Positions 1 to 1,000 of a stretch of 16,164 nucleotides of DNA are shown here, piece by piece. Every line of letters begins with the position of its first letter. The stretch's first letter is position 1. A model generated the notes under the pieces. It worked only from the letters and a program-made list of their open reading frames with translations, searched no databases and had not been told where the DNA came from. This stretch comes from a virus: the UHGV virus genome UHGV-0142489, one strand, 5' to 3'. A program made the position numbers and the translations under genes.

Positions 1-140
1 TGATTGAAATCAAAATAACGATGGGTTTATTATTACCAAAATGGTAAATTTACAACCCATTCCCATTGTGCCATAGTAATCGGGCACTGGCAAAATCCAG
101 TGCCGGGATTGGCGTCCTGGGTTACTACAGAGGCACATAT

Positions 141-160
141 GCCGCATAAGCGGTTTTTTT
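141..160 (+). terminator. Weak candidate intrinsic terminator at the extreme 5' end of the window
   Basis: 4-bp GC stem ccgc(142-145)/gcgg(150-153) with ataa loop, followed by seven consecutive T (154-160). The stem is short, so this is weak; it would end a transcript arriving from upstream of the window. Confidence 0.3.
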
Positions 161-313
161 ATGTGTAAAGCGCACCTATTCTATGGTGGGCTGTGTGGGG
201 GCACCGAAAGGTGCGCCGGGTCCTTTGTAGCCGGTTACGCCAACCCTGCACAGTTCACCACCAACCGATTGGCGTCGGTAGTGGTGATTAACCTAACTAC
301 AAAGGTGATCACT

Positions 314-1000
314 ATGAGTGCTAACGTAACCCCATCTGTTTTTCATTTTGAATCAGAAGCAACCATTCGAGCCATTGTTATTGATGGAAATCCTTGGTTT
401 GTTGCCAAAGACGTTATTAAAGCTCTTCAACTGACAAACCCCACTATGTCAATAAAATCTCTTGATGATGATGAAAGGGCTAAATTTAACTTAGGCCGTC
501 AAGGCGAAACCAATATTATCAACGAGTCAGGCCTCTACACACTGATCCTCCGCTGCCGCGACGCAGTGACACCAGGCACTATCCCCTACCGCTTTCGTAA
601 ATGGGTTACAGGTGAGGTTCTTCCTCAGATCCGCCGCACCGGAAGTTACATTAAAAACTCGCTCCCGCAGGAAGAACGCATAAAGATGGTTGCCGACCAG
701 GTAGCCAACGCCACAGCATCAGCAGTGATGCAGGCAATCAAGATAGAGAACAAAACCTACAGCGCCCCACTGAAGCCCGGCTACCGCAGCCTGATTCACT
801 CGCCGTCTGGTGTTCTCGGCCTGACGGAAAACTCACTGCTGATGAATCTGCTGAACCAGTTACAGGAAGACGGGCACGATGTATCGGGCGCGGCGGCGGA
901 GCTGACCACCATGTTCTGTTACATCGTTGGTGTGAGCAAATGCCTGCGTGATATCCAGACGCACGCGGAGTACATCAACGACAAGGCAGGGTTCTTCTGA
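314..1000 (+). CDS. Bro-N domain protein (phage antirepressor / KilA-type family), 228 aa
   Basis: ORF-track frame 161..1000 trimmed to the ATG at 314, which has an AAAGGTGA Shine-Dalgarno at 301-308 with a 5-nt spacer. The N-terminal ~110 aa (FHFESEATIRAIVIDGNPWFVAKDVIKAL ... GLYTLILRC ... RKWVTGEVLPQIRRTGSY) fit the Bro-N domain pattern, which normally starts within the first 10 residues. The C-terminal half is not recognised. Confidence 0.8.
   Translation: MSANVTPSVFHFESEATIRAIVIDGNPWFVAKDVIKALQLTNPTMSIKSLDDDERAKFNLGRQGETNIINESGLYTLILRCRDAVTPGTIPYRFRKWVTGEVLPQIRRTGSYIKNSLPQEERIKMVADQVANATASAVMQAIKIENKTYSAPLKPGYRSLIHSPSGVLGLTENSLLMNLLNQLQEDGHDVSGAAAELTTMFCYIVGVSKCLRDIQTHAEYINDKAGFF

Follow-up and report, generated by a model that had tools for sequence, protein, structure and literature searches.

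The immI regions of phages P1 and P7 reportedly comprise a c4 antisense RNA with a1/b1 and a2/b2 sites, icd and ant1/2, as set out by Citron and Schuster in 1990, and Hartmann et al. in 1995 are said to have found that P1 C4 is matured from a longer precursor, with RNase P acting at its 5' end. According to a passage in PMC8198154 that cites Citron & Schuster 1990, C4 is required for full repression of ant in P1.

In Gifsy-1, two leader conformers, A and B, have been demonstrated, of which A is silent and has a1 paired in cis with a' (PMC4825925, Hershko-Shalev et al. 2016). The silent conformer was defined with the compensatory mutants G28A/C162U and G31A/C159U, and activation runs via a leader ORF, orf45, that is translationally coupled to anrP (PMC4825925). 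Acting in trans, IsrK raises anrP translation more than 100-fold, and it is required for prophage induction (PMC4825925). An arrangement of isrK, C4 and a BRO-N gene has been described in APSE phages (PMC7313666; LR794149). Finally, in the satellite phage P4, a processed CI leader RNA pairs with repeated complementary sites (seqA/seqC) up- and downstream of itself and so controls downstream genes (PMC4825925).

The DNA analysed here (the window) is a stretch of 16,164 nucleotides from the virus genome UHGV-0142489. A preliminary description, made from the letters alone, had drawn attention to three hairpins within positions 84–214, ahead of a Bro-N gene, and had suggested that they might belong to the 3' end of an upstream transcript followed by a regulated leader, or to a small RNA.

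The phage and its Bro-N gene

About 90% identity to HEMP4, phiv142-3 and phiV10 extends over 82–86% of the 16 kb of the window, which also has a capsid gene of the epsilon15 type; on these matches, the phage with the element is a phiV10-like temperate podovirus. Within positions 1–1100 of the window, the matches of relatives cover 55–77%.

Residues 18–104 of the 228-amino-acid protein encoded from ATG 314 matched the Pfam Bro-N family (PF02498; E 5.4e-20, 72.2 bits against a gathering threshold of 25.6), and the protein also matched PHROG 130, ‘anti-repressor Ant’ (E 1.7e-56). The view that no convincing gene precedes this start was borne out, and in an E. coli prophage of 97.9% identity RefSeq/PGAP begins the gene at the equivalent ATG. 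A tRNA/tmRNA scan of the window found none. On the minus strand there were only short, unconserved ORFs (10..147 and 159..251) and a weak 9/12 promoter-like match, with no Rfam match.

Downstream of the antirepressor gene, the GC content falls to 31–36% in an island at 1321–2713, against about 45–55% around it. Two ORFs lie in this island, both with GTG starts (1321–2184, 287 aa, with a hydrophobic N-terminus; 2201–2713, 170 aa); they had no Pfam or PADLOC match and PHROG matches only of unknown function, and the island looks like moron-type cargo. Inside the start of the first of these ORFs there is a 36-nt hairpin of 15 pairs (1351–1386, CTGGTTAGTGGTTAT...ATAACCGCTAACCAG), which was flagged by the terminator scan and is followed by a poor T-run.

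An IsrK-type RNA and a C4-type RNA in tandem

All three hairpins were present in the sequence at the positions first given for them, and their folding energies were scored against dinucleotide shuffles. The hairpin GCACTGG-CAAAAT-CCAGTGC at 84–103, with a 7-bp stem and a 6-nt loop, reached −10.3 kcal/mol (z −4.1; 0 of 200 shuffles as good). For GCCGC-ATAA-GCGG(T) at 141–154, which runs into a T7 stretch at 154–160, the fold of 141–160 gave −7.1 kcal/mol (z −2.6; 2 of 200 shuffles as good), and the hairpin GCACC-GAAA-GGTGC at 201–214 gave −7.7 kcal/mol (z −5.2; 1 of 200).

Comparison with Rfam placed these hairpins within two larger RNAs (Table 1). The isrK family (RF01394) matched 84–160 of the plus strand over the full length of its model (1–77 of 77) with 72.2 bits, against a gathering threshold of 50. 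Of the three hairpins, the first thus represents hairpin 1 of an IsrK-type sRNA and the second its terminator; this sRNA is laid out as hairpin 1 (84–103), hairpin 2 (104–119), a single-stranded stretch, the terminator (141–153) and the T7 run (154–160). The element thus has three hairpins, a Rho-independent terminator at its end and covarying stems, as isrK does: across the 15 loci described below, hairpin 1 carries compensatory changes in 6 of 6 pairs, and hairpin 2 is conserved with G-C/G-U changes. In addition, a terminator scan flagged 141–154 together with its T-run. The ‘small RNA’ of the preliminary description accordingly corresponds to this family match at 84–160, with its own predicted terminator. 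In a permissive scan, the c4-a1b1 family (RF03163, described as ‘a1, b1 targets of C4 antisense RNA’) scored below its gathering threshold at 71–123 (41.7 against 46.7 bits; E 2.6e-9). The isrK model covers the same element as c4-a1b1, and the two models coincide in VT2-Sakai, YYZ-2008, pPE4 and Gifsy-1; moreover, the a1 and b1 copies of the C4 targets are present upstream of C4 in the window.

Transcription is predicted to start at about position 84, 6 nt beyond the end of a promoter-like site. Tyrion, HEMP4 and two Klebsiella phages keep the motif of this site (GGTAAATTTACA...TTGTGCCATAGT); in the Stx/P1 group, TTGAC(G/C)-17-TATA(T/G)T stands at an unchanged distance to the isrK +1, and the position is that of the annotated constitutive promoter of P1, P1c4/P51b. 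A conserved promoter-like site so close to 84 argues that the terminator at 141–160 would end a short primary transcript from about 84. This location, kept in the homologues and matching P1c4, speaks against the suggestion that the region is the 3' end of an upstream transcript.

The third hairpin forms part of a second RNA. The C4 family (RF01695) matched the plus strand over its whole model (1–87 of 87) with 79.5 bits, against a gathering threshold of 45. The minimum free energy (MFE) fold of these 87 nt is the three-way structure given by Rfam (−45.2 kcal/mol, z −3.6), with a closing stem (184–200/244–260), the GAAA hairpin (201–214) and a hairpin (215–219/231–235) with an 11-nt loop, and its stems show compensatory changes in 13 of 27 pairs across the 15 loci. 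This RNA is located upstream of an antirepressor gene (Bro-N / Ant PHROG) in a phiV10-like phage. By eye, the 3' part of C4, CACCACCA, resembles a tRNA-like acceptor/CCA end.

C4 and the Bro-N leader contain matching sites: b' pairs with b2 over the Shine-Dalgarno sequence in 9 of 9 Watson-Crick pairs, and a' pairs with a2 in 7 of 7. The Shine-Dalgarno sequence itself sits 5 nt upstream of ATG 314. The ‘regulated leader’ proposed earlier can now be described, from Rfam, complementarity and covariation, as a C4-type antisense RNA followed by its target sites in the Bro-N leader (179–313). The preliminary description had overlooked the larger RNA (179–265) of which the GAAA hairpin is a part, and the complementarity to the ribosome-binding site; the hairpins in its range of 84–214 are real, but the range cuts C4 in half and misses targets that reach 308. 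On the evidence of Rfam matches at the gathering threshold and covariation in 15 loci, the structures are far beyond chance.

Table 1. Features of the leader and the gene that follows it (positions in the window).
Feature	Position	Strand	Basis
Promoter-like site: -35 TTTACA (49–54), 17-nt spacer, TG-extended -10 CATAGT (72–77)	49–77	+	Consensus scan, 9/12 matches with TG
IsrK-family small RNA (= c4-a1b1 element)	84–160	+	Rfam RF01394, covariation, terminator scan
a1 site TTGGCGT, in the loop of isrK hairpin 2	109–115	+	7-nt Watson-Crick complement of a' (237–243)
b1 site CTACAGAGG, single-stranded in the IsrK-like RNA	125–133	+	9 contiguous pairs with b' (222–230), one of them G-U
C4-family antisense RNA	179–265	+	Rfam RF01695, fold, covariation
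b' recognition loop of C4, CCTTTGTAG	222–230	+	Within 11-nt hairpin loop 220–230; complementary to b1 and b2
a' recognition segment of C4, ACGCCAA	237–243	+	In unpaired three-way junction 236–243
Alternative hairpin: TCACCAC (255–261, C4 3' arm) with GTGGTGA (281–287)	255–287	+	MFE, covariation
a2 target TTGGCGT	269–275	+	4 nt past the C4 match; complement of a'; position as annotated P1 a2
b2 target CTACAAAGG (297–305), overlapping the Bro-N Shine-Dalgarno AAGGTGA (302–308)	297–308	+	Perfect 9-nt complement of b'
Bro-N domain antirepressor, 228 aa	314–1000	+	Pfam, PHROG, RefSeq start

Recognition sites covary across related loci

BLAST with the leader matched 235 phage records, and matches were found in 939 of 5426 complete E. 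coli genomes, with a coverage of at least 80% in 450. We compared the window with 13 phage loci (APSE-7, phiV10, Tyrion, PhiR26_1, VT2-Sakai, 2H10, Actinobacillus pPE4, two Klebsiella phages, HEMP4, Stx2c phage, YYZ-2008 and Stx2_14040), to which P1 and Gifsy-1 were added, making 15 other phages. In all 13 phage loci, C4 comes 18–31 nt after isrK and an antirepressor-type gene (Bro-N, Ant or Rha) lies downstream of the pair, and the groups with this tandem include Uetakevirus, Stx/lambdoid, APSE, Klebsiella and Actinobacillus. P1 carries c4-a1b1 and C4, and Gifsy-1 carries isrK, with an overlapping c4-a1b1 match, and C4. The preliminary description had proposed a covariance analysis across related phages as a check on its stems, and in the 15 homologous loci the stems covary.

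The same was true of the recognition sites. A MAFFT alignment of the leaders was in register for a1, a', a2 and the alternative helix (with P1 a2 shifted) and out of register for the length-variable b sites, and the b helices were assessed by alignment-free complementarity. In the 15 loci, the a1-a' and a'-a2 helices were each paired in 95.2% of alignment cells, against 21–50%, and for a1-a' 23–50%, when slid by 1–3 columns, the unpaired cells being the P1 row, which is one column out of alignment register. Four of the 7 positions in these helices were compensatory, and 0 of 500 shuffles, a control that ignores phylogenetic relatedness, reached the covariation score. As a', the loci have six different 7-mers, and a1 and a2 complement each of them exactly.

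For the b sites, 13 variants of the b' loop occur in the 15 loci, and b1 and b2 match each of them. Over 16 loci, the mean energy of the cognate b'-b1 duplex was −11.4 kcal/mol, against −5.1 kcal/mol for permuted partners, and that of the cognate b'-b2 duplex −11.2 kcal/mol, against −5.7 kcal/mol; none of 20000 permutations, which likewise take no account of phylogenetic relatedness, was as low in either case. When whole cores were paired instead (C4 215–246 with the isrK middle or with the downstream 75 nt), the cognate partner was best in only 7–8 of 15 rows. The contrast is poor because shared GCCGG/CCGGG stems pair promiscuously, and loop-only tests were therefore used. The recognition sites also vary among otherwise similar leaders, as in the window and Tyrion, which have the same b' and a different a'. 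Thus a'/a1/a2 and b'/b1/b2 covary three ways. Family membership, structure, complementarities and their covariation are, for this leader, matters of observation.

Alternative folds of the leader

Folded as one molecule, the read-through leader (84–330) had an MFE of −105.6 kcal/mol (z −5.3), in which 109–115 pairs with 243–237 and 125–133 with 230–222, that is, a1 with a' and b1 with b'. Forcing separate isrK and C4 folds cost only 1.9 kcal/mol, which predicts a bistable leader, comparable to conformers A and B of Gifsy-1. In the leader folded alone, a2 and part of the Shine-Dalgarno sequence lie in local hairpins. When C4 was co-folded with either the leader or the IsrK-like RNA under a nested model, no trans pairings were returned; kissing complexes fall outside this model, and since it cannot represent kissing-loop pairing, the result neither supports nor opposes pairing in trans.

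The MFE fold of the read-through leader also contains an alternative hairpin, in which the C4 3' arm pairs with 281–287 and a2 is held in the loop. This helix was paired in 96.7% of cells in the 15 loci, with 3 compensatory pairs, against 30–75% in slid controls. Since this helix and the closing stem of C4 rule each other out, it could be a processing or presentation switch; no description of it was found in the literature examined on these RNAs.

In PhiR26_1, a b2 complement, CTACTCAA, is placed at about 912–925, just past the Rha start codon and not on the Shine-Dalgarno sequence, and a C4 target can therefore move into the first codons.

A putative immI-type switch

The region is very probably an immI-type RNA switch, of the kind formed by P1 c4 and Gifsy-1 isrK, that controls the Bro-N antirepressor. 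From the homologues, we infer where transcription starts, how it terminates or reads through, how C4 is processed, in which direction regulation works and what the short RNA does. The promoter at 49–77 would start transcription at about 84, and the intrinsic terminator at 141–160 would stop most transcripts, yielding a 77-nt IsrK-type sRNA with a1 and b1. Transcripts that read through would hold C4 (179–265) and the Bro-N leader; in P1, C4 is excised from such a precursor. The b' loop and a' junction of C4 would then pair with b2 and a2 in the leader and occlude the Shine-Dalgarno sequence; as b2 overlaps that sequence, ribosomes could not load and no antirepressor would be made, so that lysogeny or immunity would be kept. 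As copies of a2 and b2, a1 and b1 may pair in cis with a' and b' to give a folded, silent precursor, and the short RNA may compete for C4 in trans, turning on translation of the antirepressor as in Gifsy-1. Regulation most likely acts directly on the Bro-N Shine-Dalgarno sequence. As the orf45-type frame is broken in the window, the precise way in which activation works may differ from that of Gifsy-1.

These elements can be joined in one reading, which we offer tentatively, as possible but short of probable: in this phage group the 77-nt IsrK-type RNA would be a dedicated anti-antisense decoy that directly titrates C4 off the Bro-N ribosome-binding site, without the leader peptide that Gifsy-1 uses, and the conserved switch between the C4 3' arm and 281–287 would decide whether a read-through transcript goes on to C4 maturation or a2 presentation. 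The ‘address codes’, of which a has 6 variants and b 13 and which recombine freely, would then set up antirepressor immunity groups across unrelated phage families.

Could the region instead be untranslated sequence with no regulatory part, in which 141–160 is the terminator of an upstream gene and the other hairpins belong to a passive 5' UTR? An upstream gene would be out of view, as the window begins at position 1, and in phiV10 a small ORF on the same strand ends about 80 nt before the element. However, a conserved promoter-like site ends 6 nt ahead of 84, two RNA families match over their full lengths, and a three-way covariation of the a and b sites that includes a b2 overlapping the Shine-Dalgarno sequence is not expected of a passive UTR. 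Furthermore, deletion of the isrK promoter in Gifsy-1 abolishes the RNAs and induction (PMC4825925), and we hold this explanation to be extremely improbable. The sequence variation obeys the rules of base pairing rather than those of codons, and in the 15 loci no reading frame across C4 stays open throughout, both of which count against a coding region, be it a Bro-N protein extended from ATG 161 (279 aa) or an orf45-like leader peptide coupled to Bro-N. The ORF 161..1000 is indeed open and in frame with ATG 314, but ATG 161 has no Shine-Dalgarno sequence and comes directly after the T-run; in phiV10, the closest relative, the frame from the equivalent of ATG 161 stops in the b' loop (TTT TAG), and the RefSeq protein starts at the equivalent of 314. 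A leader peptide would have its precedent in Gifsy-1, where orf45 opens at the AUG conserved in the 5' arm of C4 and closes with ATGA on anrP (PMC4825925), and CDSs are annotated across the element in some GenBank records. In the window, by contrast, the orf45 frame (ATG 183) stops at TAG 228–230, 84 nt before ATG 314, and we regard coding as very improbable.

The IsrK-like RNA might, alternatively, work mainly as an Hfq-dependent trans sRNA on host mRNAs, its link to C4 and Bro-N being secondary. The Rfam family bears the name ‘isrK Hfq binding RNA’, a Rho-independent terminator with a U-tail is typical of Hfq sRNAs, and the loop of hairpin 1 (GCAAAATC) is conserved with no partner identified. 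Yet a1 and b1, which are variable and single-stranded, track the adjacent C4 in every locus, which argues that the cognate C4 is the selected partner, and the Gifsy-1 phenotype needs an intact isrK locus (PMC4825925). Nothing that we tested calls for a host-directed role via Hfq, and we consider it unlikely. An immI-type switch acting on Bro-N is the reading that we prefer.

Annotation of the RNAs

The leader consists of two known phage regulatory RNAs in tandem, in an arrangement that is already known, and leaves the class of mechanism unchanged. Its value lies mainly in annotation: of the records that we inspected, namely phiV10-family records and one RefSeq/PGAP E. coli prophage region (19AR0656), none marks the RNAs, and the latter has only the BRO-N CDS and no ncRNA annotated. 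In view of its leader sequence, the Bro-N gene may be taken for an antirepressor under tight RNA control, which would make it a likely induction or anti-immunity switch of phiV10-like prophages.

Several records of the compared loci have CDSs running through or over isrK/C4 (L006 616–1161, L013 369–1202, L007 705–797, L005 763–936 and, on the minus strand, L008 859–1056). They comprise antirepressors started far upstream, small hypotheticals and one CDS on the opposite strand, and are probably over-annotations.

Comparison with known systems

The immI region of P1/P7, as annotated in the P1 GenBank record, resembles the window in the order promoter-a1-b1-C4-a2-b2 over the Shine-Dalgarno sequence and start codon, leading into an antirepressor operon. 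In both, the C4 fold places a' in the junction and b' in the loop of a hairpin, the 7 nt of a' are complemented exactly by a1 and a2, and the promoter is equally distant. The annotated b2 of P1 lies 11 nt before the icd start, whereas the window has no icd-like ORF between C4 and ATG 314 and its b2 is on the Bro-N Shine-Dalgarno sequence. The antirepressor is of the Bro-N type in the window and Ant1/2 in P1; the recognition sequences differ (a' ACGCCAA and b' CCTTTGTAG in the window, a' CTGTCAA and b' TCACTAAC in P1), as do the phages, a podovirus and a P1-like plasmid prophage, respectively. Moreover, a1/b1 in the window is followed by a strong predicted intrinsic terminator, so that this segment can be released as a 77-nt sRNA, whereas the equivalent hairpin and U-run of P1 are weak (z −1.3) and were not flagged by the scan. 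The P1 locus compared here has, at 583–612, a hairpin, CCGCAG...TGCGG, then UAUUUUUG, at the position of the isrK terminator.

The APSE phages of Hamiltonella share with the window isrK, C4 and a Bro-N gene, with an a' and b' that match the APSE leader, at about 69% DNA identity over 225 nt. The GenBank record of APSE-7 lists, in order, an sRNA of the ‘isrK Hfq binding family’, one of the ‘C4 antisense family’, regions for a' and b', and a BRO-N protein. The recognition sequences (a' ATGCGAA, b' CCTGTTTAG) differ from those of the window, as do host and lineage (Sendosyvirus). The likeness to P4 is drawn from the literature; P4 works by terminating transcription, and no Rfam family relates it to these RNAs.

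In the isrK-orf45-anrP-isrJ region of Gifsy-1, isrK, C4, a2, GGTGGTGA, b2 over the Shine-Dalgarno sequence and the antirepressor gene are colinear with the window, and a1 and a' are identical (TTGGCGT/ACGCCAA), whereas b', b1 and b2 differ. A short, terminated sRNA and a read-through mRNA arise from one promoter in Gifsy-1, as is predicted for the window, and in both, two nearly isoenergetic leader conformers are predicted, one with a1/b1 paired to a'/b'. The a1 site of the window corresponds to nt 26–32 of Gifsy-1 IsrK, and the mutant pairs G28A/C162U and G31A/C159U fall exactly on the a1-a' helix, at the equivalents of G111-C241 and G114-C238 in the window. In Gifsy-1, a 45-codon ORF spans C4 and ends ATGA on anrP, whereas the frame in the window stops after 15 codons; in the window, no isrJ follows, no antQ lies upstream and the antirepressor is of a different type. 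Within 34131–34316 of the Gifsy-1 sequence (minus strand), the published orf45 coincides with a full-length Rfam C4 match of 69 bits, and its first AUG, at nt 107 of the transcript of isrK, is the one conserved in the 5' arm of C4. The IsrK paper (PMC4825925) does not name the orf45 region C4. Plausibly, the stable downstream RNA of Gifsy-1, STnc1160, corresponds to this C4 homologue, and the match of the ‘orf45/STnc1160’ region to Rfam C4 links the P1 and Salmonella literatures.
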